Source: a virus | Taxonomy: Duplodnaviria > Caudoviricetes | Virus record (IMG/VR): IMGVR_UViG_3300028025_000089 | Reading direction: 5' to 3' (one strand) | DNA length: 64,000 nucleotides | Made by a program: the position numbers and the translations under genes | Shown here: piece after piece, positions 688 through 30,897 of the stretch | Layout of the letters: each line of letters starts with the position of its first letter | Numbering within the stretch: the stretch's first letter is position 1 | The notes under the pieces: model-generated | Database searches by the model: none | What the model saw: only the letters and a program-made list of their open reading frames with translations | Told to the model about the DNA's origin: nothing

Positions 688-705
688 TAATTTGTAAATG
701 AATTC

Positions 706-739
706 AAAAAAAAAAAGAGTCCTTCGGGACTCTTTTTTT
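706..739. terminator. Bidirectional intrinsic terminator
   Basis: A-tract, GAGTCC-TTCG-GGACTC (cUUCGg loop), T-tract, between convergent genes. Confidence 0.9.
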
Positions 740-742
740 GTA

Positions 743-1945
743 TTATAGATTATCAAATAAATTTGTTTCGGGATTATAAATTAAATCTTTATTCCCACCA
801 TTAAATAAATTGTAAATAAGTTTGTCATAGGTTTCAACCAAAACTTCATTGTCCGCATGGTATCTTTGAAGAACCTTATCATTTCTTTCATGATACTCGA
901 TTAAATTATTATCGTGTTCTGATAATATGTAATCCAATTGTTTTGCTCCACCAACTGTGTCAGATCCTTCGTAATAATAACCAAGATCTTTACACAAAGG
1001 TGCGTTATGTAAAACAGGATAACCCAAAAACGCGGCATCCATATATAAATAATTCAACGGATTTAAAACTTGATGACAAACAAGAACATCCAAATGTTGA
1101 GTTAGAATAAATGCAGTTTGATATCTTGCTTCGCCCGAAACTCTTTTGTCTTTATATAAATCAAAAGTTTTTACAATCGCCATAAACTCATGATTAGTTT
1201 TTAATTTTTCAGCGTTTGTAATCATCAAACTATTTATTTTTTCTTTACCAATTTCACCTCTATAACATTCCTCAACCACCAAAGATGGTATAAGTGCATA
1301 TTTGACTATATTAATATTTGGTTCCATAATACCAATAGTCTTTCTTTCTTTATTAGGAACGTATTTATATCCTTTTTTGTATTTTCCTTCTAAGTGAGAT
1401 CTTTCAATTTCTTTTACACTTTCCAATAAAAATTTGTGGTGCCAAATAAAAGGGACCATTATTGCATCAGTTCTATACACCGTTTTGAAAAAACCAAAAT
1501 TTGTTTCGTGTTGTTGTGGAATATACCAAACCTCATCAAAAGTTGTTTCGTATTCAATATAATTTTTTTGATTTTCACCAAATAAAACTTTTTCAGTATT
1601 CAAAATGTAGTTATTACCACATTTGTATGCGACATATCTTTTATTAGGATCTTCTTTAAATTTTAATATTTTTGATTCGTGAATTTGTGCTCCCATCATA
1701 ATAATAAGATCCATCTCCATATATTTGTCGTCAAAGAAATATATGTCAAGATCTTCTAAATATTTTGCCTTTGTTAAATTATCACCCTCAACTTTAACAC
1801 TATTTAAAATACAAACTTCATAATTGTTTGTTGAGTTTTTTAAAAGATGCGACAACATTAAAACATTTTGTTTCATACCATTTGTCCATATTGACTCAGA
1901 GTAACTTTTAAGTGCTAATGTGATTCCAATTTTTAAATTTTTCAT
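743..1945 (-). CDS. DUF2827-like putative glycosyltransferase, paralogue A
   Basis: N-terminal KIGITL...SIWTNGMKQN and C-terminal NPLNYLYMDAAFLGYPVLHNAPLCKDLGYYY resemble DUF2827. Start moved to the ATG at 1945, one base after the upstream stop codon. Confidence 0.7.
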   Translation of the reverse strand: MKNLKIGITLALKSYSESIWTNGMKQNVLMLSHLLKNSTNNYEVCILNSVKVEGDNLTKAKYLEDLDIYFFDDKYMEMDLIIMMGAQIHESKILKFKEDPNKRYVAYKCGNNYILNTEKVLFGENQKNYIEYETTFDEVWYIPQQHETNFGFFKTVYRTDAIMVPFIWHHKFLLESVKEIERSHLEGKYKKGYKYVPNKERKTIGIMEPNINIVKYALIPSLVVEECYRGEIGKEKINSLMITNAEKLKTNHEFMAIVKTFDLYKDKRVSGEARYQTAFILTQHLDVLVCHQVLNPLNYLYMDAAFLGYPVLHNAPLCKDLGYYYEGSDTVGGAKQLDYILSEHDNNLIEYHERNDKVLQRYHADNEVLVETYDKLIYNLFNGGNKDLIYNPETNLFDNL

Positions 1946-1946
1946 A

Positions 1947-3095
1947 TCAATAAATTTTATTTTCTTCCCAATTATATTTTTTTCTTTCAAACTTATTATT
2001 TAAAACATTTTCAACAAGTTCTTTGTATTGGTCAACTAAAGTTTGATTTTCTTTAGTGTATCTTTTTATAATTTCTCTATTTTTGTTGATGTATTCTTTA
2101 TAATTGTCATTATGATTTTTAATAACATCGTCAATTCTATTTAAAGCCTCGTCTCCATTGAATCCTTCATAGTAATAACCAACGTCTTGACACATGGATC
2201 CATTATGGATAACAGGATACCCCATCCAAGCAACATCCAACCATAAATAATTTAAATTATTTTCCCATTGCCAACTAAAAACAAAATCGGTATGGTCAGG
2301 AACAATTTTGGCCGTAGGGTATCTATCCTCAACACTTACTATTTTACTTTTACCGATTTCGGTTGATAAAACAAAATCAATAAATGGTTTTGATGTTTTT
2401 ATAACATCGGCACCAAATAAATATATGTGACTCAGAGGATTTATTTTTTGATTTTTTTCTAATATTACTATCGGTAAAACAACATTTTTCATTACAGAAA
2501 TATTAGGTTCCATAACCGAACACCTTTCTATTTTTCTTGGTGCATATGTTTCTTTGTTTCTTAATTTAAACGTTTCTTCAATTACAAATGGATCCCAAAT
2601 AAATGGGACAACAGTTACTTTATCTTGACCTGTAATAAACTGATAAAAACTATAGTTGGTTTTTTCCATTTGAGGTATTGACCATACTTGATGTGGTTTT
2701 TGATCTAAATCATATCTATTTCTAAAATAAGTAGTATCTTCATTTTTTTTAAATAAAATATTTTCAGTTTTCATGAGGTAATGATTACCACATTCATATG
2801 CTACTATTTTTAGATCTTGATTTTTTATTTTCCATTTTTTGAAGTGTGTTTTTTGCACCGTAAATCCCAATTGAATAACCAAATTATATCTTATATTATA
2901 AGATTTTTCTAAACTAAAAATGTTTATTTCGTTTTCGTATTTTTTTATTTCTTCGATTGTGTTTTCATTACCACAAATTAAATCAACAATATATCCACAT
3001 TTTTTTAACACTCTCGCTAAATATATGGCGTTTTGATTAACTCCATTTGAAAATAAATTGCCTTTTATATTAATTGTTATTCCAATTCTTTTCAT
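1947..3095 (-). CDS. DUF2827-like putative glycosyltransferase, paralogue B
   Basis: RIGIT...LFSNGVNQN, MEPNISVMKN, NNLNYLWLDVAWMGYPVIHNGSMCQDVGYYY; co-linear with 743..1945. Confidence 0.7.
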   Translation of the reverse strand: MKRIGITINIKGNLFSNGVNQNAIYLARVLKKCGYIVDLICGNENTIEEIKKYENEINIFSLEKSYNIRYNLVIQLGFTVQKTHFKKWKIKNQDLKIVAYECGNHYLMKTENILFKKNEDTTYFRNRYDLDQKPHQVWSIPQMEKTNYSFYQFITGQDKVTVVPFIWDPFVIEETFKLRNKETYAPRKIERCSVMEPNISVMKNVVLPIVILEKNQKINPLSHIYLFGADVIKTSKPFIDFVLSTEIGKSKIVSVEDRYPTAKIVPDHTDFVFSWQWENNLNYLWLDVAWMGYPVIHNGSMCQDVGYYYEGFNGDEALNRIDDVIKNHNDNYKEYINKNREIIKRYTKENQTLVDQYKELVENVLNNKFERKKYNWEENKIY

Positions 3096-3098
3096 TTT

Positions 3099-3653
3099 TT
3101 ATTTTTTTATATGTTGATTTACAAACTGTAAAATAATTTGATTTTTTTCTTCATCTGTTTTTGCGTTAGCCCATAACCATAAAAAAGAAGTTTCAAGTGA
3201 TTTAAGTTCTTGTTTTTTTTCGTTCACAATTTTTTCTAAAAGAAAAATATTTGTTTCATCTAAATCTACCTCTATAGATAATTTTTGGGCTATTTTATAT
3301 AAAGTCAATAGATCATTTTTGTCATAAGCCCTTTGAGCATCAGTATACATTGTCACCAAATAAACATCTGTGGTTTTATCGGGATGACAAAATTTTGCAA
3401 TACTTCTAAAAACACTTTTTATTTTAAGTAATTCTTCGTCAGAAACCTCGTATTTTTTATCAACTTTTTTATTTTCGTTTTTAGTATCCCCAGATTGAAT
3501 TGGTATTTCTTCGCCAAGATCGTGAATTTCTTTCATGAATAATGGTCTGTAATGAGAATTAAACTCATCAACATATTCTTCTTCTGATTCTAATAGATTT
3601 AACTCCTTTATTAGAAGTCTTAACTTTAAGTTATTTAATTTTTTGTTTGACAT
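3099..3653 (-). CDS. J-domain (DnaJ-like, HPD motif) co-chaperone
   Basis: VFRSIAKFCHPDKT followed by AQRAYD, the helix II-HPD-helix III pattern, inside a helical protein. Confidence 0.7.
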   Translation of the reverse strand: MSNKKLNNLKLRLLIKELNLLESEEEYVDEFNSHYRPLFMKEIHDLGEEIPIQSGDTKNENKKVDKKYEVSDEELLKIKSVFRSIAKFCHPDKTTDVYLVTMYTDAQRAYDKNDLLTLYKIAQKLSIEVDLDETNIFLLEKIVNEKKQELKSLETSFLWLWANAKTDEEKNQIILQFVNQHIKK

Positions 3654-3741
3654 CTATTATAAATAGATTGAAATCTCTTTGAGTTTATATTTATAGATGT
3701 TAATGAATATTATTTCATATAACAGAAATATTTAAAATAAG

Positions 3742-6700
3742 ATGCCAATATATAATAGATTAACAGACCGTCAAAAAGTTTCAGCTGTAACTTTAAATGA
3801 TATATTTCACGTAGTAGTTACGGGAGACACAACACAGAGCCCTCAAGGATCATCTTATTATGCTCCTTTGAGTGATCTACAATCATTATTAAGTGGTTCT
3901 ACAGGTCCTGCAGGAACTTCAGGAACAAACGGAACAAGTGGAACAAACGGAACTTCAGGGACAAATGGTTCTAGTGGAATTAATGGAACATCAGGAACTA
4001 ACGGAAGTTCGGGGACAAATGGATCTAGCGGAACCAATGGAACATCAGGAACAAACGGAACTAATGGGACATCTGGAATTAGCGGATCTTCAGGGACTTC
4101 AGGTTCAAGTGGAAGTTCAGGTTCAAGTGGAAGTTCGGGAACTAATGGAACAAGTGGAACTAATGGTAGTTCAGGAACAAATGGATCTTCAGGGACTAAT
4201 GGGACATCAGGAACTAATGGAACTAGTGGGACAAACGGGACTAATGGAACATCGGGATCATCAGGCACGAGCGGATCAAGTGGGACATCAGGGACTAACG
4301 GAACTAGCGGAACAAACGGGTCATCAGGAACTAATGGAACTAGTGGTTCTTCAGGAGCCAATGGAACTTCAGGGACTAATGGAACTAGTGGTTCTTCAGG
4401 AACTAACGGAACTTCAGGGACTAATGGGTCTAGTGGTTCTTCAGGAACTAACGGAACAGACGGATCAAGTGGGAGTAGCGGCACTAACGGAACGTCAGGT
4501 GCTAATGGCTCAAGTGGGACTAATGGGACATCAGGAACTAACGGAACTGACGGATCAAGTGGAACAAATGGCACGTCAGGGTCTAGCGGCACAAATGGAA
4601 CTTCAGGAAGTAGCGGAACTTCTGGAACAGATGGTTTAACATGTATAAATTATACTTTATCAGCACCAGGACCGACCGACTCACAATTTACAGGAACAAC
4701 ATGCGATGGAGTTCAACAAACAGGTAATGTTGCATCTGGAACCTCATACAGTGATTGTTTTATTAGTGGTTCTGTAACTATGAATAATGGTGGTATAATA
4801 ACAAATAATGGAATTTGTGTTGGAACGTCAGGGACAAGCGGGACTAACGGAACTAATGGAACATCAGGAACGAATGGAAGTGATGGGACGAGCGGAACTA
4901 ATGGAACATCAGGAACTAATGGAACATCAGGGACGAATGGAACCGATGGTTCAAGTGGAATTAATGGTTCTTCGGGAACTAACGGGACTTCGGGAACTAA
5001 CGGAACAGATGGTACTAGTGGTCTAAATGGAACATCAGGAACGAATGGGACTTCAGGAACAGATGGTATAAGCGGAACAAATGGGACATCAGGAACTAAT
5101 GGTTCAAGTGGATCGTCAGGCACAAATGGAACAGATGGAACAAGTGGGACTAACGGGACATCAGGGTCTTCAGGAACAAATGGAACTGACGGAACTAGCG
5201 GTTCTTCAGGGACAAATGGAACTGACGGAACTAGTGGTTCTTCAGGGACAAATGGGGCCGATGGTTCAAGTGGAACAAATGGGACTTCAGGAACTAACGG
5301 GTCTAGTGGGACAAATGGAACCGATGGAACATCCGGAACTAATGGGACTGATGGTTCAAGTGGGTCTAGCGGAACTAATGGAACTAGCGGTAGTTCAGGA
5401 ACAAATGGTACAAATGGAACTGACGGAACTTCTGGTACTAATGGAACCGATGGAACATCAGGGACAAACGGGACTAGCGGTAGTTCAGGAACAAATGGAA
5501 CTGACGGAACTTCTGGTACTAATGGAACCGATGGGTCAAGTGGAACTAGCGGAACTAATGGAACATCAGGAACTAATGGAACCGATGGTTCAAGTGGAAC
5601 TAATGGTTCTTCAGGGACTAATGGAACTGACGGAACATCGGGAACGAATGGAACAAGCGGAACTGACGGAACATCAGGATCTAGCGGAACAAATGGTACA
5701 AGTGGGACTAACGGAACGTCAGGAACTAATGGGACCAATGGAACTTCAGGGACTAACGGTAGTTCAGGAACTAACGGAACCGACGGAACATCTGGAACTA
5801 ATGGAACGTCAGGATCTAGCGGAACTAATGGCACCGATGGGTCAAGTGGAACTAGCGGAACTAATGGAACATCAGGAACTAATGGAACCGATGGAACAAG
5901 CGGAACAGGATTTAACACAGTTCAAGATCCCGCATTAACAAGAGTATTAACTTCTGACGGCACTCCAAACGGAGCAATTGCTCAATCAGGTTTAACATAT
6001 AATGGAACACAATTAACGGTTACGGGTCTTACATATACTAGTGGTGTTACATCGACCTCTAAAATTACATTTCCACAAATAACAATCAATAGTAGTTATA
6101 CGGCAACTACAAATGATTACATGATAGATGTTACAGGAGGAACATTTACAGTTTCTTTACCAAGTGCTGTAGGTATTCAAGGAAGATTATTAGTTGTTAA
6201 AAATAATGGTGGGGGTGCAGTAACCGTAGATCCATATGGAAGTGAAACTATTGATGGAAAACCATTTGTTATTTTAGGCGAAACAAACTCAATACAATTA
6301 GCAAGTAATGGAAGTGAGTGGGTTGCATTAGGATATAATATATCAACCGTAAACTCTTCAACAGGTGTTTTTGAATTTACGGGACTAACAAAAGTATCAA
6401 ATACAACCTTTAATGTTGCACGTGTTAAAGGATGGATAGTTGATGATACAACTAACCCTTTAAGTCCCCAACTTTATTATGTAGATTTTAGTGGTGGAAC
6501 ATTTACCGATAATTATGTGACCACCGATTTTGAAACCTTTGTTTATTTAACAAGTGGTGGAACAATTGGTCAGCAACCAACAATCTTAACAGAACAACAA
6601 AGAAGACAAAATATCTTTTTAGGTAAAATAGGACACCCTGAAAAAACATCAATTAATTTAGTTTTTTCTCAACCTGATTTTGTCCAATCTCCATTATCAC

Positions 6701-9700
6701 AACTTCGTGATATGTTTGTTCCAATTAATTTAATTAATGGTGGGGTATATCCTTCACCTAATGGGGCAAATTTAAAAATTAATACAAGTGCGGGTTACAT
6801 ATATGGTTTGGGTATTAATTTCGCATCGAATACATTAGAACCAAATTCATTATCAATATCAGGAACTAGTCCTTGCACATTTCAATATAGAACTCAAACA
6901 GGTGGGACGGTTACAAATGTTACTGATATTGATCCACTTAACTATGATGTTGGTGGAGTTAAAACACCAATAACAGGAACTAAAACAACAAACCAAAGAA
7001 TTTTTTTATTACAAAATGGTTCGTTTAGAATTCAATACGGTCAAAACGTTTATACCACATTTGCAGAAGCGGTTGCATCATTACAAACCGAATCATTCAC
7101 GGAATTCCCTAATTTTATTAACAATGCCGTTCTTATTGGAATCTTAACGGTGACATCGACCGCAACTGATTTAACGGATCCTGCAAAGGCAAGATTTTTC
7201 TTCGCATCCAAATTTGGTGAAACTGTAGGTGCTGCGGGAGGAGTGTCAACAACAAACTTACAACAGGCATACAACAACTCATCTCAACCTGAAATCACAA
7301 CTAATTCAACATTAGGTGCTGTTTCAATTAAAAGAGGTAGTGCTTCTGACGCTGATCATGTATTTGAAATTCAAGATGGTGCTGGTGTTGATAGAATGTT
7401 AGTTAATGGTTCAGGTAGAACAACAACGACAGATTTAACAATTACAGGTCTTACAGTTAATTCAGGATTGACAAGATTTTTAGTTGTCGATACAAGTGGA
7501 AACACATATTACAGAACAAGTGGTGCCGATGGAACATCGGGAACTAACGGGACATCAGGGACTAATGGAACTAGTGGTAGTTCAGGAACTAATGGTACAA
7601 GTGGAACCAATGGAACTAGCGGTAGTTCAGGGACAAATGGAACATCCGGCACAAACGGGACTAGCGGTTCTTCAGGGACTAATGGGACAAACGGGACATC
7701 TGGAACGAATGGCACAAGTGGAACAAATGGAACTAGTGGTTCTTCAGGAACTAATGGAACAAACGGCACATCAGGGACTAATGGAACATCTGGCACAAAT
7801 GGTTCTTCGGGGACTAACGGTAGTTCAGGAACAAATGGAACATCTGGCACAAACGGGACTAGCGGTAGTTCAGGAACAAACGGGACTTCAGGAACTAATG
7901 GCACAAGTGGAACCAATGGAACTAGCGGTAGTTCAGGCACAAATGGAACATCCGGCACAAACGGGACTAGCGGTTCTTCTGGAACCAATGGAACAAGCGG
8001 TAGTTCAGGCACAAATGGAACATCAGGATCTAGCGGAACTAATGGAACATCAGGAACTAATGGAACTAGCGGTTCTTCAGGCACAAATGGAACAAGCGGA
8101 ACCAATGGGACTAGCGGTAGTTCAGGAACAAACGGAACAAATGGAACTTCAGGGTCTAGCGGAACTAATGGAACAAACGGTAGTTCAGGCACAAATGGAA
8201 CATCAGGATCTAGCGGAACTAATGGAACCAATGGAACATCGGGAACAAACGGAACTAGCGGTAGTTCAGGGACTAACGGCACATCAGGAACAAATGGGAC
8301 AAGTGGAACTTCACCAACAGTTCCAGGATCAAATGACCAAGTATTAACTTCAAACGGGTCAGGTGGAATAGTTGCAGAATCTTTATTAACATTTGATGGA
8401 ACTAAATTAAGTATGTTATACCAATCAGGTGATGAAGGTGGTGAATTATTCTTAAACAAGGCGGTTACCAATACAACATTAAGTGGTGGAATTACAATAG
8501 ATTCATACCAAAATAAATTAAGATTTTTTGAACAAGGTGGAACTGCGAGAGGTGCGTATATTGATTTAACAGCATGTGCTGCCGGTGTTGGCACAAATTT
8601 ATTAAGTGGTGGTGGAACGACTAGTGGAACAAATGGAACATCGGGAACCAATGGAACATCGGGAACTAATGGAACAAACGGAACATCCGGCACTAATGGC
8701 ACAAGTGGAACTTCAGGATCTAGCGGAACTAATGGAACATCGGGATCTAGCGGAACTAATGGAACATCGGGAACCAATGGGACTTCAGGGTCTAGCGGAA
8801 CTAACGGAACAAGCGGAACCAATGGGACTAACGGAACAAGCGGTTCTTCAGGCACTAATGGAACTAATGGAACAAGCGGAACGAATGGAACTAATGGTTC
8901 TTCAGGAACAAACGGCACATCAGGGACAAACGGGACATCTGGCACTAATGGAACAAGTGGTTCTTCAGGGACTAATGGAACTTCAGGGACTAATGGGACT
9001 AGCGGTTCTTCAGGGACAAATGGAACATCGGGAACCAATGGGACTTCAGGGTCTAGCGGAACTAATGGAACATCGGGGTCTAGCGGAACTAATGGAACGT
9101 CAGGAACTAATGGAACAAGTGGTTCTTCAGGAACTAATGGAACTTCAGGAACAAATGGAACTTCAGGAACAAATGGAACTAGTGGTTCTTCAGGGACAAA
9201 CGGGACAAGTGGTAGTTCAGGCACTAATGGAACTAATGGTACAAGTGGAACTAACGGTAGTTCTGGAACTGACGGAACAAGCGGAACAGGATTTTCATCA
9301 ATTTCACCAACTACAAATGATAACATATTAACAGCAAACGGAACTTCAAATTCTGCAGATTCAGAACCAAATTTAACATTTGACGGAATAAATAATATTC
9401 TGAATGTAACGGGTAGAACCAACATGACAGACTCAACTGCAGCACCAGCACCTTCGTTAAGTATTGTAAGTAACCCAACAGTACCGGTTAAAAGAACAAT
9501 ATCTGTTACTAATTCAGGTGACGGTATAAATACAAATGATCTATTTGGAGTTCAAACATTAGTGACAGGTGCGGTTAATAGTGCAATTGGATACTCTACT
9601 GACGTTTCAGATGCCGTAGGAGAAAATATTGGTGTTGATATTATCAATGCTTCAAGTCAGTCAGGATCAACTCAATGGGGGTCAAGAACAAACGTTGTGA

Positions 9701-10725: not shown

Positions 10726-10727
10726 AT

Positions 10728-13658: not shown

Positions 13659-13711
13659 CTAAAAAAAAATAATTTATTCATATTATTTGTGTAGTATCTT
13701 ACTATTAGTTT

Positions 13712-14638: not shown

Positions 14639-14655
14639 TTTGGTATTTATGTTAT

Positions 14656-14955
14656 ATGCCAAACATAGTTCAAATTAATTCTTTATCGGGAACGGCACCT
14701 TTTGATTTATATGTGTGTGATCAAACAATTTCATATTGTTTTTTTGTTGCGAGCATTTCAGGATCACCATATACATTTGATGTTCCACCCCCATTAGATT
14801 CAACAACACCAATTATATTAAAAGTTATTGATGCAAATAACTGTGAGGTAATATATCTATTATCTTGTGGTGAAATTTATATTAAAGAATTTGAAGGGTT
14901 TGAAGTGTTCTTATTTCAGGATGCAAATGTATTTATATTTGAAGGTCCACCTTAA
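14656..14955 (+). CDS. Small Cys-containing beta-rich protein, probable virion accessory
   Basis: 99 aa, beta-strand pattern, preceded by TATTTAT at 14644; function is inference. Confidence 0.4.
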   Translation: MPNIVQINSLSGTAPFDLYVCDQTISYCFFVASISGSPYTFDVPPPLDSTTPIILKVIDANNCEVIYLLSCGEIYIKEFEGFEVFLFQDANVFIFEGPP

Positions 14956-14992
14956 CAATTTACTATTGAGATGTCTATAATATTTTTGTTTT

Positions 14993-16237
14993 ATGAAAAT
15001 ATTTGTTCAAATCGCGTCGTATCGCGACCCTCAGCTTATACCAACAATAGAAAATATGTTGGAGAATGCCAAAAGACCAAAAAACATTGTAATTGGTGTG
15101 GCAAGACAATTTCATCCTGAAGATGGTTTTGATGATCTATCCAAGTATGAAAAAGATAAAAGATTTAGAATCCTAAATATTCCTTACACAGAATCAAAAG
15201 GAGTTTGTTGGGCAAGACATCAAGTTCAACAACTATATGGTGGTGAAGAATATACCCTTCAGATCGACTCTCACATGAGATTTGAAAAGAATTGGGATGA
15301 CGAAATGATTAAAATGATTAAACAACTTCAAAAGAAAGGTCATAAGAAACCTTTATTAACGGGGTATGTTTCATCTTTTGATCCTGAAAACGATCCTGCA
15401 GGTAGAGTTACTGAACCATGGAGAATGGTTTTTGATAGATTCACTCCTGAAGGTGTTGTATTCTTTTTACCTGAAACTATTCCAGGTTGGAAAGAAATGA
15501 AAGAACCAATTCCGGCAAGATTCTATTCTGCACATTATTGTTTTACGTTAGGTGAATTTTCAACCGAAGTTCAACATGATCCTGAATTTTATTTTCACGG
15601 AGAAGAAATTTCAATTTCAGTAAGAGCATATACTCACGGTTATGATTTATTCCACCCACATAAAGTTCTTGTATGGCACGAATATACAAGAAAAGGTAGA
15701 ACAAAACAATGGGACGATGATAAAGAATGGCATTTAAGAAATACCGCATGTCATATTAAAAACAGACAACTTTTAGGAGTTGATGGTGAAACGTTTAATG
15801 GTGATTACTCTGAATGGTTTGGAACTGAAAGAACCGTTCAAGATTACGAAAAATATGCTGGTATTCGTTTTGAAACAAGAGGGATTCAACAAGAAACAAT
15901 AGATAAAAAATATCCACCAAACACATATAATTTTGAAACCGAACAAGATTGGAAAAATTCATTCTCAACAATTTTCAAACATTGTATTGATATAAACTAT
16001 GTTAGTGTTCCTGAAAAAGATTATGAATATTGGGTAGTTGCTTTCCACGATGAAAATGACGAAACATTATATAGAAGAGATGCCGACATTAATGAAATCA
16101 ACGGATTCTTCAGAGACCCTGATGGGTATTGTAAAGTGTGGAGAGAATTCAACACAACTAAAAAACCTAAGTATTGGGTTGTATGGCCTTACTCAACTTC
16201 TAAAGGATGGTGTGATCGATTAACAGGAAATTTATAA
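14993..16237 (+). CDS. GT60/GlcNAc-family (Skp1 Gnt1-like, polypeptide GlcNAc-transferase-like) glycosyltransferase
   Basis: IFVQIASYRD, SKGVCWAR, LQIDSHMRFEKNWD, FHGEEIS, RAYTHGYDLFHP are hallmarks of this GT-A family. Confidence 0.8.
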   Translation: MKIFVQIASYRDPQLIPTIENMLENAKRPKNIVIGVARQFHPEDGFDDLSKYEKDKRFRILNIPYTESKGVCWARHQVQQLYGGEEYTLQIDSHMRFEKNWDDEMIKMIKQLQKKGHKKPLLTGYVSSFDPENDPAGRVTEPWRMVFDRFTPEGVVFFLPETIPGWKEMKEPIPARFYSAHYCFTLGEFSTEVQHDPEFYFHGEEISISVRAYTHGYDLFHPHKVLVWHEYTRKGRTKQWDDDKEWHLRNTACHIKNRQLLGVDGETFNGDYSEWFGTERTVQDYEKYAGIRFETRGIQQETIDKKYPPNTYNFETEQDWKNSFSTIFKHCIDINYVSVPEKDYEYWVVAFHDENDETLYRRDADINEINGFFRDPDGYCKVWREFNTTKKPKYWVVWPYSTSKGWCDRLTGNL

Positions 16238-16241
16238 TAAC

Positions 16242-17819
16242 ATGGCAAATATTTCGTTTTACGGTTCCCACAATGCCGCTGTAGTTGTGGAGGATCAAGG
16301 AAAAATTATTACAGTAATAGAGGTAGAAAGATTTTTAACTCAAAAAAATGCAGGTTATTCACAATATTTAGTATCATATTCAAGACCTTTTTTATTAAAA
16401 CATATTATACAATATATTAAAGATGAGTTTGGTATTTCTGAATTTGATAAATGTTATTACTTAAATTCTGATACGGTAGAAGGATCTGAAAAAGTTCATT
16501 ATCAAGAATTAATACCAGCAAAAGAATACATCAATTCATTACACCATTTAAGTCATGCTGCTTGCGGATTCTATCAAACGGATTATAATGAAGCGTTAAT
16601 CATTTCTTTTGATGGTGGAGGTAATGACGGGTTCTTCAATGTTTATCACGCTGAAGATAGAAATAACATAAATGTAGTTGAGAAATTCAATATTGATTTA
16701 GGATTTCCATATATGTCATTTGGTGATTACTTGGGTGACATTACAAAAGAACCGGCACTTAATATTGGTAATTTAGTTTATGCAGGAAAAATAATGGGTC
16801 TTTGTTCGTATGGAAATGTGAACGAAGAATGGTTACCACATTTTGAGGAATACTATAGAAGAAAACCAGATGGTTTAAATTACTTACAATACCTACAAGA
16901 ACTTAGTGAACAAACAGGTTTATCATTTGATATGGAAAATCGAATGTCAGGTCAGTTAGGGTGGGATGTTGCTAAGACATCACAAATTGCATTTGAGAAT
17001 GTTTTTATGGAATTGGCTCAACCGTTTTTAGATCAATTCCCTAATATTCCTTTGATTCTTGTTGGTGGATGTGCGTTAAATATCTTGTTAAACACAAAAT
17101 TACACCAAGAACTTAATAGACCTGTGTTTGTTCCACCAAATCCTAATGATTGTGGAATTGCAACAGGTATGATGTTAAATCACATTAAACCTGAAAAGGC
17201 AATTGATATTACTTATGCGGGTATTGGTATTTTAGACAAACACACATTAATGTCTCATGTAGAAGAACGACACGCTCTTCCTCTTAAAACTGAAATGTTA
17301 GTTGATGATTTAGTAGATGGTAGAATTGTTGGGGTTGTCAGAGGTAATGCCGAACATGGACCAAGAGCTTTAGGAAATAGAAGTATTATTTGTAATCCAG
17401 CCTACGAAAACATGAAAGACATTTTAAATGCAAAAGTAAAAAATAGAGAGTGGTATAGACCATTTGCGCCTGTTTGTAAATTAGAAGATGTATCTAAATA
17501 TTTTAATTTCGAAGGTGAGAGTAAATGGATGGGATTTTGCCCAACGGTAAAAGAAGAATGGAGAGAAAAATTAGTTTCAATTACACATGTTGACGGGACT
17601 GCGAGAGTTCAAACAGTTACAGAAGAACAAAATCCTTGGTTATATAATTTATTAACCGAATTTGAGAAAAAATCAGGAATTGGTGTTTTATTAAACACAT
17701 CTTTCAATGTAAACGGAAAACCAATTCTTTCTCGATATAGTGATGCGATTTGGGTTTATGATAAAACAGAAATGGATTGTCTTTTATTAGGTGATTATTA
17801 TTTTAGAAAAAGAGCATGA
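16242..17819 (+). CDS. O-carbamoyltransferase, NodU/CmcH/TobZ family
   Basis: SHNAAV, EVERF, HHLSHAACGF, DGGG, GGCALN, EHGPRALGNRSI, KNREWYRPFAP, HVDGTARVQTV, LLNTSFNVNGKPI. Confidence 0.92.
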   Translation: MANISFYGSHNAAVVVEDQGKIITVIEVERFLTQKNAGYSQYLVSYSRPFLLKHIIQYIKDEFGISEFDKCYYLNSDTVEGSEKVHYQELIPAKEYINSLHHLSHAACGFYQTDYNEALIISFDGGGNDGFFNVYHAEDRNNINVVEKFNIDLGFPYMSFGDYLGDITKEPALNIGNLVYAGKIMGLCSYGNVNEEWLPHFEEYYRRKPDGLNYLQYLQELSEQTGLSFDMENRMSGQLGWDVAKTSQIAFENVFMELAQPFLDQFPNIPLILVGGCALNILLNTKLHQELNRPVFVPPNPNDCGIATGMMLNHIKPEKAIDITYAGIGILDKHTLMSHVEERHALPLKTEMLVDDLVDGRIVGVVRGNAEHGPRALGNRSIICNPAYENMKDILNAKVKNREWYRPFAPVCKLEDVSKYFNFEGESKWMGFCPTVKEEWREKLVSITHVDGTARVQTVTEEQNPWLYNLLTEFEKKSGIGVLLNTSFNVNGKPILSRYSDAIWVYDKTEMDCLLLGDYYFRKRA

Positions 17820-18703
17820 AAACAAAATTAGTAACTGCGTTTTATACTGATATTATTGGGTTTCCTTTTTTTGGTCACGAGTCCTTTGCAAGACATGAAC
17901 GTTATTTACATTCATTAAGAACTTTAAACAATATGAATACAGAAATTGTTTGTTATTGTAATGACACTCAATATGATTTAATGACCAAATATTGTGAAGA
18001 ATTTAATTTGACTAATGTAACGATTAAGATTTCAAACCTTAGAGATTATCCAAAAACAAATAGAATGTTAGAATTAAAAAGATCTAACGATCAATTTAAT
18101 TTTTATCATGAAGTTGATTGGAATAAGTTATATCTTCTTTCTAAAGAGTATGATGAATTTTATGATTATATTTATTGGATTGACTGTGGTTTATCTCACC
18201 GTGGTTTATTCACTTTAAAATACAATCCACACTCCGATAAAATTACAGGTTTATCAAGAGATTGGGAAAACTATTCATTCACAAATATATTTTGTCCTGA
18301 ATTATTTCCAAAGATAAATAATTGGGTAGGTGATAAATTAATCAATTTGGCAAACACTATGTTTTCCCACAACCCAAACGAAATTAGATCTGTTTATAAA
18401 AATAACAACGATTACAAACACATGTCAGTTGGTGGTATTTTAGGGGGACACATTTCAAAATTAAATTGGTTCATAGAACAATTTGATAGAATAAGTGATA
18501 TAAGTTTAAATGAAAATTTTATATTAAATCACGAAGGTATGATAACAGATTTAGAGTTTGAAAATCCTGAAATGTTTAAAACTTATAGTTTTGACACTTG
18601 GTATCATGATGACTTTTGGCTTACAACACCGATTTTCGATAGAGAATCAATTAAAAATAAAACACACTTCGTTCATTTTTTTGAAAAGGAGTTAGGAATT
18701 TAA
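17816..18703 (+). CDS. HtrL/YibB (WlaTC)-like putative glycosyltransferase
   Basis: TKLVTAFY start, YIYWIDCG motif, VGGILGG; homologous to the middle domain of 18713..21091. Confidence 0.55.
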   Translation: MKTKLVTAFYTDIIGFPFFGHESFARHERYLHSLRTLNNMNTEIVCYCNDTQYDLMTKYCEEFNLTNVTIKISNLRDYPKTNRMLELKRSNDQFNFYHEVDWNKLYLLSKEYDEFYDYIYWIDCGLSHRGLFTLKYNPHSDKITGLSRDWENYSFTNIFCPELFPKINNWVGDKLINLANTMFSHNPNEIRSVYKNNNDYKHMSVGGILGGHISKLNWFIEQFDRISDISLNENFILNHEGMITDLEFENPEMFKTYSFDTWYHDDFWLTTPIFDRESIKNKTHFVHFFEKELGI

Positions 18704-18712
18704 AAATTAAAT

Positions 18713-21091
18713 ATGGAAGATTTTTTTGATAAGGTATTACACTATTATGGCAGAAAGGGCCAAAAACTATTTATGATCAACATTGGTGCCATGGACGGTG
18801 TTATGTTTGATAGTATGAGCGGTTATGCTCAAATATACAATTCAGATGTATTATATGTTGAACCAATGAAACCTCATTTTGAAAGATTGGTAGAACATAA
18901 AAGTAATAACCCTGGAAATAAATTTGAAAATTCGGCGATTAGCGATTTCAATGGGACTATTACTATGAAAACAATTCCAATTGAGGTTGTTGACGAAGGT
19001 TTAGTTCATCCTGCTTTTTATGGTATGAGTGTGATTGATCCTACTAAAAATGGTATGGGTAGTGAAGGTGACAGAGAGGTTGTTGAAAAATATGCCGTTG
19101 ATGTTGAGGTAAATTGCATCACATGGGATACTCTTGTTCAAAGACACAATATAGAACATTTTGATGTGTTGTCAGTGGATACTGAAGGACATGATTATAC
19201 AATTTTTAAACAAATTGATTTACAAAAATTTAGACCTAGTCTGATTAGATTAGAGTGGTGTAATATGACTGATGAAGAAAAAACTAACATTACAAATAAA
19301 TTTACAGATGCTGGATATGTTTATGAAATATTAGGTAATATGGATATTGATGCAATTAGAAAAGATGTTTACGATGAAATAGAATTATCTTTAAATCCTG
19401 TAAAACCAAAAGAAGAAAAATCAAAATCAAGACTTACCATTGTTACTGGTTTATGGAACATTAAAAGAGAAGAATTAAGTGAAGGTTGGTCAAGATCTTA
19501 TGAACACTACTTAGAAAAATTTTCACAGTTATTAGATACATCTTGTAATATGATAATTTTTGGTGATTCAGAATTAGAAAGTTTTGTTTTTTCTAAAAGA
19601 AGTCATGAAAACACACAATTTATTAATAGACCACAATCGTGGTTCAAAGGAGAATTCTATGATAAAATTCAAGAAATTAGAACAAATCCTGAATGGTATA
19701 ATTTGGCAGGTTGGTTAAAAGACTCCACACAGGCTAAATTAGAAATGTATAATCCGCTTGTAATGTCAAAAATGTTTTTATTACACGATGCGGTTATATT
19801 AGATAAATTTGATTCTCAAAAATTATTTTGGTTAGATGCTGGAATTACAAACACAGTGAATCCAGGTTATTTCACACATGATAAAGTTTTAGATAAGGTG
19901 GAAAATTTATTTGATCGTTTCACATTTGTTGCATTCCCTTACGAAGCAGACAAAGAGATTCATGGATTTGATATTGACGCAATGACCGAAATGGTTGGTC
20001 AAAGAGTTAATAAAGTTTGTCGTGGAGGTTTCTTTGGTGGATCTAAACCAATGATTAGAGAAATGAACACTCTATATTACGACTTAATGAAAACTACTTT
20101 AAGTAGAGGTCTTATGGGAACTGAAGAAAGTTTGTTTTCAATTATGACATATACAAACCCAAACAATATTGATTATGTAGAAATTGAGTCTAATGGGTTA
20201 TTATATAAGTTTTTTGAGGACGTTAAAAACAATAATGTAGAAATTAAAAGTTTTAGAAAGGGAACCCCAACCAAAGTTAGAAATGGAGATGTTGGTTTAT
20301 ATGTAATTACATTCAACAGTCCTAAACAATTTGAGACGTTAATTAATTCTATGTATGCTTATGATGAAGATTTTATTCATAAAACAAAGAAATTTTTATT
20401 AGACAACTCAACTGATTTATCTACCACACCAAAATATTTGGAACTGTGTGAAAAATATGGTTTTGAACACATCAAGAAAGATAATATAGGTATTACGGGA
20501 GGTCGTGTGTTTGTTGCCGAACATTTCCACGAATCAAATATGGATTACTATATGTTCTTCGAAGATGATATGTTTTTCTACAATGGACAAGATTTTACTT
20601 GTAAAAATGGGTTTATGAGAAAAACTAAAAATTTATACGAAAAAGTTTTACAAATTTCTAAAAAAGAAAATTTTGATTTCTTAAAATTTAACTTTACAGA
20701 ATTTTATGGTAGTCATGAAAAACAATGGGCGTGGTATAATGTTGATCAAGAGTATAGAAATACTATTTGGCCTGATAACCCAAAACTTCCTGTAAACGGT
20801 CAAGATCCAAATGCTCCTTATTTAGAATATAAAAATATTAAATCATATGAAGGGACACCTTACGCCACGGGTGAAGTTTATTTATCAAATTGGCCGATAA
20901 TTTTATCTAAAGAAGGAAACTACAAATGTTATATTGAAACTAAATACACCTATCCTTACGAACAAACTTTAATGTCACATTGTTATAAAGAAATGAAGAA
21001 AGGAAAAATACATGCGGGAGTTCTTCTTATGACACCAACCGAACACGATCGTTTCGAGTTTTATGAAGGTGGGTTAAGAAAAGAATTTTAA
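18713..21091 (+). CDS. Fusion: FkbM-type methyltransferase + HtrL/YibB-like domain + GT-A (GT2-like) domain
   Basis: INIGAMDG/VEP/VDTEGHD (FkbM); LTIVTGLWNIKR...FWLDAGI...GGFFGG (HtrL-like); LYVITFN...MFFEDDM (GT-A DxD). Confidence 0.7.
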   Translation: MEDFFDKVLHYYGRKGQKLFMINIGAMDGVMFDSMSGYAQIYNSDVLYVEPMKPHFERLVEHKSNNPGNKFENSAISDFNGTITMKTIPIEVVDEGLVHPAFYGMSVIDPTKNGMGSEGDREVVEKYAVDVEVNCITWDTLVQRHNIEHFDVLSVDTEGHDYTIFKQIDLQKFRPSLIRLEWCNMTDEEKTNITNKFTDAGYVYEILGNMDIDAIRKDVYDEIELSLNPVKPKEEKSKSRLTIVTGLWNIKREELSEGWSRSYEHYLEKFSQLLDTSCNMIIFGDSELESFVFSKRSHENTQFINRPQSWFKGEFYDKIQEIRTNPEWYNLAGWLKDSTQAKLEMYNPLVMSKMFLLHDAVILDKFDSQKLFWLDAGITNTVNPGYFTHDKVLDKVENLFDRFTFVAFPYEADKEIHGFDIDAMTEMVGQRVNKVCRGGFFGGSKPMIREMNTLYYDLMKTTLSRGLMGTEESLFSIMTYTNPNNIDYVEIESNGLLYKFFEDVKNNNVEIKSFRKGTPTKVRNGDVGLYVITFNSPKQFETLINSMYAYDEDFIHKTKKFLLDNSTDLSTTPKYLELCEKYGFEHIKKDNIGITGGRVFVAEHFHESNMDYYMFFEDDMFFYNGQDFTCKNGFMRKTKNLYEKVLQISKKENFDFLKFNFTEFYGSHEKQWAWYNVDQEYRNTIWPDNPKLPVNGQDPNAPYLEYKNIKSYEGTPYATGEVYLSNWPIILSKEGNYKCYIETKYTYPYEQTLMSHCYKEMKKGKIHAGVLLMTPTEHDRFEFYEGGLRKEF

Positions 21092-21117
21092 TTCAAGTAT
21101 TTATTGAAAAATGCTAA

Positions 21118-21624
21118 ATGGAATTTTTCATTAAGAAAGGTGCGACCCTTCCTGTTTTAAAAATCAACGTTATTAAAGACGGTAGATCTGACTATGATAG
21201 AACTATGCGGTATTTAGAAGAGACCGACATATTTTTTTCTATGGTCGATACTGAAACAGGTATACCAAAGTTTACATCAAGACCTGCGGGTGTGATGAAA
21301 AAAGAACAATTAAATACAAACCTTCAAACGGAGTATTATGTTTATTATCAATTCACACCTAACGACACAAAAAAAGTTGCAAGATACAAAGGTCAATTTC
21401 TTTTTAGAAATGAAACAGGTTATTTAATACTTCCTTTAAATCAAGAAATATATGTAAATGTTACTGATAGTTTTATAATAAATGATTTTGAATATCAAAG
21501 TTGTTATGTTGTAGATTTTCCTTGTTGTAAATCACAACCTGTTCCACCACCAATTCCTCCAATACCAACAACCACAACATCAACCATACCAACAACCACA
21601 ACATCAACCATAACCGGTTTATAA
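21118..21624 (+). CDS. Virion accessory protein (BppU-N-like beta domain) with Pro/Thr-rich tail, paralogue 1
   Basis: MEFFIKKGATLPVLK...YYVYYQF...YKGQF; tail PVPPPIPPIPTTTTSTIPTTTTST. Confidence 0.5.
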   Translation: MEFFIKKGATLPVLKINVIKDGRSDYDRTMRYLEETDIFFSMVDTETGIPKFTSRPAGVMKKEQLNTNLQTEYYVYYQFTPNDTKKVARYKGQFLFRNETGYLILPLNQEIYVNVTDSFIINDFEYQSCYVVDFPCCKSQPVPPPIPPIPTTTTSTIPTTTTSTITGL

Positions 21625-21664
21625 TACTAAATGGTCTTTTGTTGTATTTATAGAAAAAGATTAA

Positions 21665-22468
21665 ATGGAATTTACTATAGGTCAAAACTCTACGCTCCCT
21701 CTTTTAAAATTACAGGTTGTAAAGGATGGGATCAGTGATTACGAGTCCATGATGAATTTTATTGAAACCTCATCGATATTTTTTTCGATGACAAACATTG
21801 AGACTGGTGTTTTAAAAATAAATGCTAAGGCAGCAAGTTTTGTTGAAAAATTAGAGTTAAACCCAAATGCTAGTCCTGAGTATTACGTTTATTATAAATT
21901 CACACCTCAAGATACAAACAAAGTTGGAAGATATGAAGGTCAGTTTGTTTTTATAAATGAAACAGGAACATTAGTATTACCAATTAGAGAAAAGTTATAT
22001 ATTAATATACTTGAAAGTTATATGTCAAATGATTTGGTATATAATAATTGTTATGTTTTGGATTATAGATGTTGTGTAACACCTTTCCCAACAAACACAC
22101 CAAGTCAAACTCCATATCCTATTTTGAGTATGACCCCTACTCAAACACCTACTCAAACACCTACACCAACAGTAACACCTACAAACACATCCACACCTAC
22201 AGTAACACCTACAAACACATCCACACCTACTCAAACATTAACACCAACGGTAACACCAACAAATACATTTACGTCCACCCAAACGGTAACACCAACAAAT
22301 ACTCAAACAGTAACACCAACAAATACTCAAACAGTAACACCAACTCAAACACCTACCCCAACTCCAACACCAACTCAAACACCAGCGGTCGTTGTATTAA
22401 TCAATCCAATAATAACCGAAAATGATGAATATATTATCGTTGGTAATAATGAATATTTAAAATTTTAA
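21665..22468 (+). CDS. Virion accessory protein with mucin-like TPTQTPT stalk, paralogue 2
   Basis: [15 protein letters not shown]...YYVYYKF...YEGQF, clearly paralogous to 21118..21624; about 85 aa of T/P repeats. Confidence 0.5.
22130..22385 (+). repeat. Thr-Pro tandem repeats (30-nt and 24-nt units)
   Basis: acagtaacacctacaaacacatccacacct twice (22169-22228); gtaacaccaacaaatactcaaaca twice (about 22286-22333). Confidence 0.9.
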
Positions 22469-22491
22469 AACTATTTATAAAATAAAAAACT

Positions 22492-24348
22492 ATGGCACTA
22501 ACAGGTAAAACAATTGGAGAATTAGAATATCTACAATTCCCAACAAATGAAACTTTAATTCCAGTACAATATATTGGGGACACTTATCATATTACATTTT
22601 CTTCGATAACATATAACGAAGGGACATATGCACAGTTTGTTGCAGAAGCAGGAGCCGGTGTTCTTACACCAGGTAGATTTTATTTGATGACAGATTATCA
22701 GGCCATTTATGACCAACCTAACTATGATAATTTCAAAACTCCCATCTTTACAGGTAACAGTATGACAGGTATTACCGAACCATTATTATTACTTGCAATA
22801 TCAGAAACGCAGTTTTCACCTACGGTATATTCAACATTATATCCTCAAGATCAAATAACATATGATATAACTTGGAATACGACTGAAATCTCAAGCACAC
22901 CAGCAAAAGGTAGGATTACAGAAAGAATTGACATATACAACAACAGAACAGACTACGATCATAGAAATATTTTATTTAAAAGATATCGCGGGTATTCATA
23001 TGATCAAAATAATCCACTGAGTGGTCTTGTAGGGATAAGTGGTATAACAGGAAATACTGGTGTATTATATGGAAACACAGGAACAACATTTAATTCAAAC
23101 TTATTTGTTGGAAGTTATATTGCGGTGAGAAATTTAAATCCATATATTTTTGAAGTTATTTCAGTTGAGAGTGATTCTCTTGCTACAATATCAGGTGTAA
23201 CTATAAGTGAAACTAATGACTCATCTTATTATTACGGAAATGACGATGGGATAATGAGTTATTACCAAGCAAATGTAAGACAAGATTTAGTTTATGAATA
23301 CACAACATTTGGTGATGCCATTGATGATAATGGTGCTGTAAATAATTATGTTGGTAATTACTCAAATCTTTATTTATACGAAGGGGTTGGAAACTTTTTA
23401 TTGGCAAATAATGTATTCTTAGTGGGTGCTTACAGAAACAACACTATTGGTGACGGATCTCGTAATAATACATTTAACGATGATTGTTATGATAACCAAA
23501 TAGGGTCTAATTTTTATAACAACTCCACAAATGATGATTTTGATAGTAATATAATCGGTGATAATTTCCGTGACAATTTTATTACCGCTAATTTCCAACG
23601 AAACAGAATTGGTTATAATTTTTATGATAATATTTTAACAGGATCTGATTTTTACAGAAACAATATCGGAAATGATTTTAATGGAAATGTTTGTAATAAC
23701 AACGACTTTCAAAATAATGAGATAGGAAATCAATTTAACAATAATGAAATTTATAATAATTTTTATAAAAATGACATAGGTAATGGTTATAACGGTAACA
23801 ATATCTACAGTGATTTTTATGGTAATTTGATTGGGAACGGATATAATAATAATACTATTTATACGAGTTTTAGAGATAATGTAATTGGTGATTATTTTGA
23901 TAATAACACAATTGGTGACAATACAAACATCGGAGGATTTTCGTTTTATTTAAATAATATCGGGTATTACTTCCAAAGTAACATTATATTAGGAACCTTT
24001 GCCTATAATGAAATAGGTAGTAATTTCCAAAATAATAATATTGGTGACGGATTTGGGTTTGGGATTTCTACAAGTCAAGGAAATAAAATAGGAAATTATT
24101 TTTACAATAATATAATCGGTGAATATTTTTATAATAATGTGATTGCAGATGGATTTTATTTTAACACAGTAGTTGATTTTTTCCAATTAAATGATGTAAA
24201 ATTTTCATTATTTTCTACCGATTTTAGCACATCAACATATGTTTATGGTGACTATAATTGCACTTTATTTAAAAACTCGGTATTATCCCCAAGACTTTCT
24301 TACTTTGACGGGTCGGATACTTTGATGGTAGTTAATGTGACCGATTAA
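22492..24348 (+). CDS. Probable tail fibre/spike-like protein with Asn-rich 9-aa solenoid repeats
   Basis: Repeats of x-I-G-x-x-F-x-x-N (NQIGSNFYN, RIGYNFYDN, EIGNQFNNN, VIGDYFDNN) over about 23440-24170. Confidence 0.55.
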   Translation: MALTGKTIGELEYLQFPTNETLIPVQYIGDTYHITFSSITYNEGTYAQFVAEAGAGVLTPGRFYLMTDYQAIYDQPNYDNFKTPIFTGNSMTGITEPLLLLAISETQFSPTVYSTLYPQDQITYDITWNTTEISSTPAKGRITERIDIYNNRTDYDHRNILFKRYRGYSYDQNNPLSGLVGISGITGNTGVLYGNTGTTFNSNLFVGSYIAVRNLNPYIFEVISVESDSLATISGVTISETNDSSYYYGNDDGIMSYYQANVRQDLVYEYTTFGDAIDDNGAVNNYVGNYSNLYLYEGVGNFLLANNVFLVGAYRNNTIGDGSRNNTFNDDCYDNQIGSNFYNNSTNDDFDSNIIGDNFRDNFITANFQRNRIGYNFYDNILTGSDFYRNNIGNDFNGNVCNNNDFQNNEIGNQFNNNEIYNNFYKNDIGNGYNGNNIYSDFYGNLIGNGYNNNTIYTSFRDNVIGDYFDNNTIGDNTNIGGFSFYLNNIGYYFQSNIILGTFAYNEIGSNFQNNNIGDGFGFGISTSQGNKIGNYFYNNIIGEYFYNNVIADGFYFNTVVDFFQLNDVKFSLFSTDFSTSTYVYGDYNCTLFKNSVLSPRLSYFDGSDTLMVVNVTD

Positions 24349-24365
24349 AAATATTAAAATTTTAG

Positions 24366-24394
24366 TTGATAAGAGTATTTTTTACTCCTATATT
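24366..24394 (+). promoter_or_regulatory. Sigma70-like promoter upstream of DNA polymerase
   Basis: TTGATA-N17-TATATT, overlapping a TATTTAT motif at 24391. Confidence 0.5.
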
Positions 24395-30896: not shown

Positions 30897-30897
30897 T

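Follow-up and report, generated by a model that had tools for sequence, protein, structure and literature searches.

An island of genes at positions 743–24,348 of the IMG/VR virus record IMGVR_UViG_3300028025_000089 (Duplodnaviria; Caudoviricetes), analyzed here as a single-strand stretch of 64,000 nt (hereafter the window), probably encodes a cytoplasmic system with which a phage glycosylates its own fibre and tail proteins. We think that this phage probably sugar-coats its own particle because three kinds of protein-glycosylating enzymes adjoin three kinds of fibre or tail proteins: a BAHT-family domain lies beside a collagen-like fibre, DUF2827 enzymes beside a Ser-rich coiled-coil fibre, and a GT60-family enzyme near small proteins with Thr/Pro-rich tails. 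The original prediction, made from the letters alone, had already proposed protein-directed glycosyltransferases (GTs) acting on the phage's own fibres and tail, and it is partly supported, as the domain identities include a true BAHT enzyme, the enzymes are paired and co-inherited with their partners, they are soluble, the near-complete relatives searched lacked lipid-linked pathway genes, and an upstream octamer is shared between enzyme and structural genes; what it had taken for granted, the place of the acceptors in the virion, we infer.

The window has a GC (guanine plus cytosine) content of about 30% and originates from a very large, uncultured T4-like myophage of lake type (~245 kb). 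It codes for a tail sheath, a gp19-like tube protein, a T4 baseplate protein, gp32, RecA-like and DnaB-like proteins, a family B polymerase (PolB) and a ribonucleotide reductase (RNR), and the best match of the sheath among GenBank phages was an uncultured 484-kb phage (31% identity). Two references were used for comparison, i.e., an ENA contig of 244,736 bp that is 97.5% identical to window positions 1–12071 (L107), and a collinear, 93% complete IMG/VR relative of 272.6 kb that was taken whole (G002). Related loci were compared around two anchors, the BAHT fusion (79 loci) and DUF2827 (12 loci), together with 10 large related phage records (hereafter the large records); since all these phages are related and uncultured, none of the co-occurrence counts given below represent independent events. 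Every enzyme domain listed in the original prediction was recovered by Pfam, NCBIfam, PDB or hhalign comparison, with the GT-A domain present only as an Atlas lead. None of the island proteins carries a hydrophobic segment of transmembrane strength and all enzymes are soluble. Coordinates of the features are given in Table 1.

The BAHT fusion and the collagen-like fibre

The middle domain of the 976-residue fusion protein is predicted to be a BAHT-family protein O-glycosyltransferase. It passes the equivalog model TIGR04414 (290.4 bits against a cut-off of 200, E 1.9e-86) and matches TibC (PDB 4rap) along TibC residues 49–387 (E 4e-63). The catalytic Asp110 of TibC is conserved (D475, within SLGD), as are Thr226 and Lys230, which contact the beta-phosphate (within HSTAQAKYW), and the sugar-contacting Trp305 (within GLSW), while the four-Cys iron finger (TibC Cys339, 342, 358, and 370) is kept as CHGC, WCP, and FEC vs. 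CYGC, WCP, and FEC.

The "Ser/Thr/Asn fibre" of the original prediction is real and turned out to be a collagen-repeat protein according to its Pfam Collagen match. It contains 366 uninterrupted G-X-Y triplets in four blocks of 83, 121, 88, and 74 (residues 52–300, 361–723, 1261–1524, and 1629–1850) that alternate with globular parts. The X position is occupied by Thr (77%) or Ser (20%) and the Y position by Ser (52%), Asn (39%) or Asp (7%). Pro and Lys are nearly absent, with a single Pro across all 366 triplets; apart from this residue, the Pro/hydroxyproline or charged pairs that stabilise other collagens at X/Y are missing. The C-terminal part carries a YG repeat of ~14 residues, a length unlike that of classical BAHT substrates, as AIDA-type repeats have about 19 residues. 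Where relatives have kept the fibre, its first 50 residues are in most cases 80–100% identical; the C-terminal ~270 residues are conserved among relatives as well. The collagen repeats give matches to many PHROG tail-fibre families; the globular parts have no Pfam, NCBIfam or PDB assignment, with the sole exception of residues 2254–2302, which weakly match the phage neck fibre 8keg (E 0.0024) and are regarded as a lead only.

No other collagen-like open reading frame (ORF) exists in the window, and glycosyltransferase genes adjoin this one at either end, the DUF2827 operon at one and the BAHT fusion at the other. Likewise, exactly one collagen-like ORF exists in the 272 kb of G002, directly next to the BAHT gene. 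In most BAHT loci with identities down to 54%, a collagen-like ORF is no more than 5 kb away. The GT9-like gene on the other side of the BAHT fusion is likely to encode a chain-extending enzyme of the same module: in two relatives (L053 and L059) GT9 and GT4-BAHT are fused into one ORF, an arrangement that assigns GT9 to the same pathway. All NCBIfam heptosyltransferase models scored below their cut-offs for this protein.

According to the mechanism that we propose, the BAHT domain would start a glycan by attaching a sugar to Ser/Thr of the collagen-like fibre; GT4, from the same protein, and GT9, encoded next door, would lengthen the chain, and the FkbM domain of the fusion would methylate it. 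Sugar-bearing Thr/Ser could thereby provide the hydration that Pro/hydroxyproline supplies in other collagens, an argument already made for BclA. N-glycosylation was considered for the 149 NG[ST] sequons of the fibre and rejected: no GT41 enzyme (PF13844; HMW1C/NGT) was found in six large relatives, and the simplest explanation of the sequons is that they arise from the GTN-GTS repeat.

Two further observations concern these genes. The fibre and BAHT fusion genes converge at window positions 10725–10728 with 2 nt between their stop codons, leaving no space for a terminator. In a clade of 59–61% identity (L016 and L017, positions 8375–12958) the GT4-BAHT-FkbM protein has an extra N-terminal region of ~550 residues (1519–1527 residues in total) and adjoins a 3153-residue collagen-like ORF.

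The DUF2827 enzymes and the Ser-rich coiled-coil fibre

Both DUF2827 proteins match the Pfam profile over its full length (profile positions 1–362 for DUF2827a and 1–361 for DUF2827b) and share about 30% identity. The start of DUF2827a, previously given as 1990, was corrected to 1945, resulting in a protein of 400 residues. Its AlphaFold2 model (predicted local distance difference test, pLDDT, 85; predicted template modelling score, pTM, 0.84) shows a GT-B/GT4-like fold, and the top 50 PDB matches obtained with Foldseek were mostly GT-B/GT4-type enzymes, including BshA, MshA, and WaaG (best match BshA, E 3e-11, TM-score about 0.6). The operon starts with p184, whose match to DnaJ is weak (E 0.016, under the Pfam cut-off); in nearly all related loci that extend far enough, DUF2827 has a p184 homologue ahead of it (L090 is cut at the edge).

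The coiled-coil fibre whose C-terminal part opens the window belongs to a family here called fib818, and a homologue adjoins DUF2827 in every DUF2827-anchored locus that extends to it. Among the large records, DUF2827 was present only in G002, G046, and G062, which are exactly the holders of a fib818 homologue, adjacent in each case (3/3 with both vs. 0/7).

A comparable arrangement exists in bacteria, where DUF2827 genes have been described as neighbours of trimeric autotransporter adhesin genes, in many cases as two or three copies (bioRxiv 10.64898/2026.01.22.700529). We examined one genome from each of five genera (Burkholderia, Paraburkholderia, Variovorax, Ralstonia, and Ottowia), each with 1–7 YadA anchors, and in all five DUF2827 was located 0.4–6.5 kb from a YadA-anchor ORF of 2120–3472 residues. 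Bacterial relatives of the family are concentrated in Burkholderiales. The phage proteins are 32–35% identical to the bacterial ones and are therefore not a recent capture.

We propose that p184 and one or two DUF2827 GT-B enzymes would act together on the adjacent Ser-rich coiled-coil fibre, with p184 as a putative co-chaperone that may help DUF2827 to decorate it.

The GT60 enzyme and the Thr/Pro-tailed proteins

The GT60-family enzyme, for which a sequence search against the PDB returned no match, is followed by genes for a carbamoyltransferase, two proteins with HtrL-like domains, and PT168 and PT267. The 295-residue HtrL/YibB-like protein has no Pfam match and was recognized by profile-to-profile alignment to the HtrL domain. 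Concerning the two Pro/Thr proteins (21118–22468), which the original prediction had regarded as mucin-like virion proteins, we could confirm that they are real paralogues, and their BppU-N-like fold suggests that they belong to the virion. The model of their N-terminal domain (pLDDT 72.6) is an Ig-like sandwich that resembles BppU N-terminal, minor tail and baseplate proteins among predicted viral structures; comparison of the PT168 fold with the PDB gave generic Ig matches only. The small domain of p99, encoded just upstream of GT60, bears a Thr/Pro tail in two relatives (L040 and L043).

GT60 was found in three of the large records only (G002, G005, and G049), exactly those with a PT168/PT267-family protein, and the two lie 3–4 kb apart (3/3 vs. 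0/7). The carbamoyltransferase is missing from G002 and many other relatives and, where present, is always nested inside the GT operon; the FkbM part of the 792-residue protein is missing in G002, L003, and L005, and G002 lacks the FkbM domains. We therefore regard the FkbM modules, like the carbamoyltransferase, as accessory.

GT60 would add the first HexNAc-type (N-acetylhexosamine-type) sugar to the Thr/Pro tails of the small tail proteins with a BppU-N-like domain. Chain extension would fall to the HtrL-like and GT-A-like enzymes, and tailoring to FkbM and the carbamoyltransferase.

Thr/Pro-rich tracts also occur elsewhere. L107 encodes (16188–17717, minus strand) a 509-residue protein with 25% Thr, 15% Pro and two long TPTPTQ-like tracts, ~5 kb upstream of the window start and among probable tail/baseplate genes; such tracts are also present in an insertion of the sheath (window 34996–38331).

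An upstream octamer shared by enzyme and structural genes

The octamer TATTTATA, the reverse complement of the T4 late consensus TATAAATA, occurs 24 times on both strands of the window, while 10.9 ± 3.2 occurrences were expected. At sites such as 3658, 3688, 14930, 21645, 22472, 28736, 34954, 39302, and 42637 it precedes, in sense and at a distance of 12–60 nt, genes for structural proteins, fibres and glycosyltransferases; the genes concerned include p184, the collagen-like fibre, GT60, PT267 (20 nt upstream), Nrep618, the sheath, the tube, p1693, and p375. The 7-mer core TATTTAT lies at most 60 nt upstream of a start codon, in sense, in 17 of its 57 occurrences, while such zones make up 1.8% of the sequence space; octamer or core together also precede p99 and PT168. 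Neither was found upstream of gp32, recA, exo, RNR or PolB. We consider the octamer a candidate late promoter of this phage group. The modification would take place in the cytoplasm, late in infection.

Co-inheritance and independent assortment of three modules

The original prediction treated the island as one system; the large records instead separate it into three modules that assort independently. In two of these records (G005 and G046), tens to hundreds of kb separate the GT60/PT168 and DUF2827/fib818 pairs from the BAHT gene, so that each enzyme moves together with the structural protein with which it is paired. The presence of BAHT played no part in the choice of the DUF2827-anchored loci; among them, BAHT and the collagen-like fibre family are either both present (6/6) or both absent (4/4). 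In the latter four (L081, L082, L083, and L084) p184-DUF2827 abuts GT60, PolB or other genes. BAHT is present in 9/10 large records, and the complete genome G062 has neither BAHT nor a collagen ORF. For the converse comparison, 49 viral records were picked solely because they encode two GT[ST]-GTN repeats: BAHT scored above the cut-off in 21 of them, among which are all six records with a completeness of 90% or more.

The modules also vary between close relatives. IMGVR_UViG_3300042884_000572 (L012) is 98% identical to the window over 9.7 kb (14636–24366), yet its BAHT allele is only 77% identical, GT9 and DUF2827b are absent, and its fibre has 1713 residues vs. 2327. Alleles and genes have thus been swapped inside the island between near-identical phages, and the variation of tailoring modules among close relatives resembles a serotype-like diversification.

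Evidence against the proposed function and alternative explanations

Several points weigh against a glycosylated virion. We infer the existence of the glycans, any branching, methylation or carbamoylation of them, the residues that carry them, their donors and their role as a coat, and the virion membership of every proposed acceptor is a prediction too. The pairing of BAHT with collagen-like fibres has exceptions: G068 (85% complete) has BAHT and no collagen ORF, and in G005, G046, and several clades of 36–41% identity the BAHT gene and the collagen-like ORFs are far apart. The octamer fits late co-expression of the enzymes with fibre and structural genes, a timing that is itself deduced from the motif, and it also precedes dnaB, SNF2, and p170 and is lacking in front of the BAHT fusion and GT9 genes.

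The active site of the BAHT domain differs from that of TibC as well. The equivalent of TibC Arg286 is Val, at identical spacing to the FFIGL-SGLSW motif; this Arg hydrogen-bonds adenine N1, which explains the ADP specificity, and the substitution R286A abolishes or strongly reduces TibC activity (PMC4358343). The position is non-Arg in nearly all phage clades, while L065, which is more bacterial-like, retains Arg. The equivalent of Pro300, the heptose stereoselectivity residue of TibC (PMC4358343), is Gly. G002, the nearest near-complete relative, encodes neither GmhA nor a cytidylyl/adenylyltransferase (CTP_transf_like), for which reason a supply of ADP-heptose by the phage was rejected; the more distant G003 holds a GmhA-like gene. 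Because of the two substitutions and the two missing G002 genes, heptose as the sugar added by the BAHT domain is doubtful.

A more far-reaching version of the same idea states that in these freshwater huge phages three unrelated adhesin-type protein GT families each have a cognate virion fibre, that in the BAHT module densely O-glycosylated Thr/Ser takes over from hydroxyproline in stabilising the proline-free triple helix, that the donor of this module is not ADP-heptose (because the adenine-contacting Arg has been lost), and that exchange of enzyme, methylase and carbamoylase modules creates virion "serotypes". We put forward this combination only tentatively. If the fibres and tail proteins are indeed glycosylated, possible roles of the coat are the stabilisation of a Pro-free triple helix, the shielding of linkers from proteases, or the shaping of adsorption.

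As the main alternative, the enzymes could remodel the host surface (lipopolysaccharide (LPS) core, O-antigen or capsule) during infection, e.g., to block superinfection or to keep progeny from binding to lysed cells, and their adjacency to fibres could merely reflect a hypervariable host-range island. GT9 and HtrL/YibB are families classically tied to the LPS core, which is a further point against protein glycosylation, and the island is mosaic, as illustrated by L012 (98% identical flanks, 77% identical BAHT allele, no GT9 or DUF2827b). In addition, G002 carries a second, O-antigen-like cluster (152551–173806) with GDP-mannose 4,6-dehydratase (Gmd), GT11 (fucosyltransferase-type), GT2, GT4, and GT92-like genes, 10–30 kb away from the island in a region that corresponds to DNA upstream of the window; its Gmd amends the earlier statement on nucleotide-sugar synthesis, since one such gene does exist outside the window region. 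Nevertheless, we regard host-surface remodelling as unlikely: BAHT is the equivalog of a protein-specific enzyme, DUF2827 was tied to adhesins rather than LPS loci in 5/5 bacteria, and a generic variable island does not predict three exact and different enzyme-partner patterns among 10 records. For a pathway linked to undecaprenyl phosphate, five near-complete BAHT phages were searched and had neither a priming transferase (Bac_transf) nor a Wzy/WaaL-type protein (Wzy_C), with no direct search for flippases, and together with the lack of transmembrane segments in the island proteins this led us to reject a lipid-linked pathway.

The glycosyltransferases could also modify host proteins, e.g., autotransporter or trimeric adhesins, pili or flagellin, and thereby alter receptor availability. 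Bacterial BAHT and DUF2827 enzymes do act on or adjoin host adhesins, and the bacterial DUF2827 relatives come mostly from Burkholderiales. Still, the phage enzymes co-vary with and adjoin phage fibre genes, their distance from the bacterial DUF2827 proteins speaks against a recent capture, and the upstream motif found at both enzyme and structural genes points to expression late in infection, together with the fibres, all of which makes a host-protein target very improbable in comparison with the phage's own fibre and tail proteins. Finally, although phage DNA glycosyltransferases and carbamoyl-type base modifications exist and a carbamoyltransferase is present here, hypermodification of phage DNA (glycosylated or carbamoylated hydroxymethyl-pyrimidines) was rejected as extremely improbable, given that the sole ThyA-family gene of G002 is a canonical thymidylate synthase (TIGR03284, 295 bits) located 125 kb away, that the carbamoyltransferase is accessory and nested within the GT operon, and that no DNA activity of BAHT, DUF2827 or GT60 is known to us.

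Relation to known glycosylation systems

GT60 enzymes include the mucin Thr-GlcNAc (N-acetylglucosamine) transferase of Trypanosoma cruzi and Dictyostelium Gnt1, which acts on a hydroxyproline of Skp1. The proposed phage acceptor tails are Thr/Pro-rich and mucin-like, as in T. cruzi, and the phage GT60 is soluble like Gnt1; the difference lies in the phage context. To our knowledge, no member of the DUF2827 family has a demonstrated activity, and glycosylation of phage structural proteins has been documented in few cases only.

The closest counterparts of the BAHT module are TibC/TibA and Aah/AIDA-I (TIGR04414; PDB 4RAP/4RB4; PMC4358343), in which the gene of a cytoplasmic enzyme also lies beside that of a repetitive, fibrous surface protein that serves as substrate. 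These bacterial enzymes use ADP-heptose, O-glycosylate Ser of a beta-helical autotransporter and form a dodecameric ring (PMC4358343). The phage system differs in that the BAHT domain is embedded between GT4 and FkbM, the neighbour is a collagen-like fibre instead of a beta-helical autotransporter, no secretion step is involved, the equivalents of Arg286 and Pro300 are Val and Gly, and ADP-heptose genes were not found in the nearest relative. With the DUF2827 loci of Burkholderiales (bioRxiv 10.64898/2026.01.22.700529) the phage shares the full-length family match, one or two tandem copies, solubility, the GT-B fold and the position beside a long trimeric-type fibre gene, whereas the phage partner is a Ser-rich coiled-coil fibre without YadA anchor and the phage copies are preceded by a J-domain-like gene.

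Virion glycosylation is known from mycobacteriophages (Freeman et al. 2023, cited in PMC12619734) and glycoproteins were seen in the jumbo phage XacN1 (PMC5852040). The common element is that phage-encoded GTs are proposed or shown to decorate the phage's own virion structural proteins. The mycobacteriophage systems, as summarised there, consist of one or two enzymes acting on the C-termini of capsid and tail-tube proteins, while here about nine transferase domains in three modules would act on fibres and tail appendages, and the enzyme families of both mycobacteriophages and XacN1 differ from those found here. For the collagens of Bacillus (BclA) and Mimivirus, O-linked sugars have been proposed to keep a helix that lacks hydroxyproline hydrated and stable (PMC8968730). 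An O-glycosylated, collagen-like surface filament, predicted in our case, is the shared trait, but the enzymes are unrelated, and BclA has Gly-Pro-Thr repeats and Mimivirus glycosylated hydroxylysine, while the phage fibre has almost no Pro or Lys and carries Thr in X.

Literature searches returned no published description of a phage BAHT enzyme or of a glycosylated phage collagen fibre. BAHT and DUF2827 were already known from bacterial adhesin loci, and virion glycosylation from mycobacteriophages; new are the DUF2827/coiled-coil-fibre module, the GT60/Thr-Pro-tail module, the independent assortment of modules and the loss of the adenine-contacting Arg. If the proposed function is true, an abundant group of uncultured aquatic huge phages would spend more than 15 kb on coating its fibres, DUF2827 would gain its first functional context, and the BAHT family would reach from bacterial adhesins to viral collagen-like fibres. 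The fibre would also represent a natural test of O-glycan stabilisation of a proline-free collagen helix, and virion glycan types would differ from one near-identical phage to the next, a matter of relevance to adsorption, host range and the survival of the particles.

Features of the island and minor observations

Table 1 Features of the proposed glycosylation island and its borders (window coordinates)
Feature	Position	Strand	Basis or remark
C-terminal 228 aa of Ser-rich, Pro-poor coiled-coil-type fibre (fib818 family)	1–687	+	Translation; 714 aa in L107
DUF2827a, GT-B fold putative protein glycosyltransferase, 400 aa	743–1945	-	Pfam PF10933, 3e-95
DUF2827b, paralogue of DUF2827a	1947–3095	-	Pfam, 9e-74
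p184, 184 aa, J-domain-like HPD motif, putative co-chaperone	3099–3653	-	First gene of the DUF2827 operon
Divergent promoter-like region, TATTTATA on each strand, serving the p184 operon and the fibre gene	3658–3695		Motif search
Collagen-like fibre, 2327 aa, proposed substrate of the BAHT fusion	3742–10725	+	Pfam Collagen 3.5e-147 over 19 stretches
976-aa fusion: GT4 + BAHT + FkbM methyltransferase	10728–13658	-	Residues 198–353, 407–745, 785–922
GT9-like glycosyltransferase, 308 aa	13712–14638	+	Pfam, 6e-17
p99, 99-aa Cys-containing small domain protein	14656–14955	+	Translation
GT60-family (PF11397) putative polypeptide O-GlcNAc-type transferase	14993–16237	+	Pfam, 8e-71, 239.7 bits vs. cut-off 21
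NodU/TobZ-type carbamoyltransferase, accessory tailoring	16242–17819	+	N domain 1e-21, C domain 1e-62
HtrL/YibB-like putative glycosyltransferase, 295 aa	17816–18703	+	hhalign probability 96.2%, E 2.5e-9; Atlas lead
792-aa fusion: FkbM + HtrL + GT-A/GT2-like C-terminal domain	18713–21091	+	Pfam; C-terminal third only an Atlas lead
PT168, 168 aa, BppU-N-like Ig domain + Pro/Thr tail	21118–21624	+	Proposed GT60 acceptor
PT267, 267-aa paralogue of PT168, ~90-residue (T-P-T-x) tail	21665–22468	+	Sequence comparison
Nrep618, 618 aa, Asn-rich 9/18-residue repeats	22492–24348	+	System membership uncertain

Nrep618, the last gene of the island, consists of a strict 9/18-residue Asn-rich repeat (F-x-x-N-x-I-G-x-x) and belongs to phage-only families; no fold or family could be assigned to it. 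Outside the island, the window encodes a 720-residue protein (28752–30914, minus strand) that contains, between unassigned termini, an Fe/Mn superoxide dismutase complete with its N and C domains (residues 171–359) and that is 82% conserved in G002.

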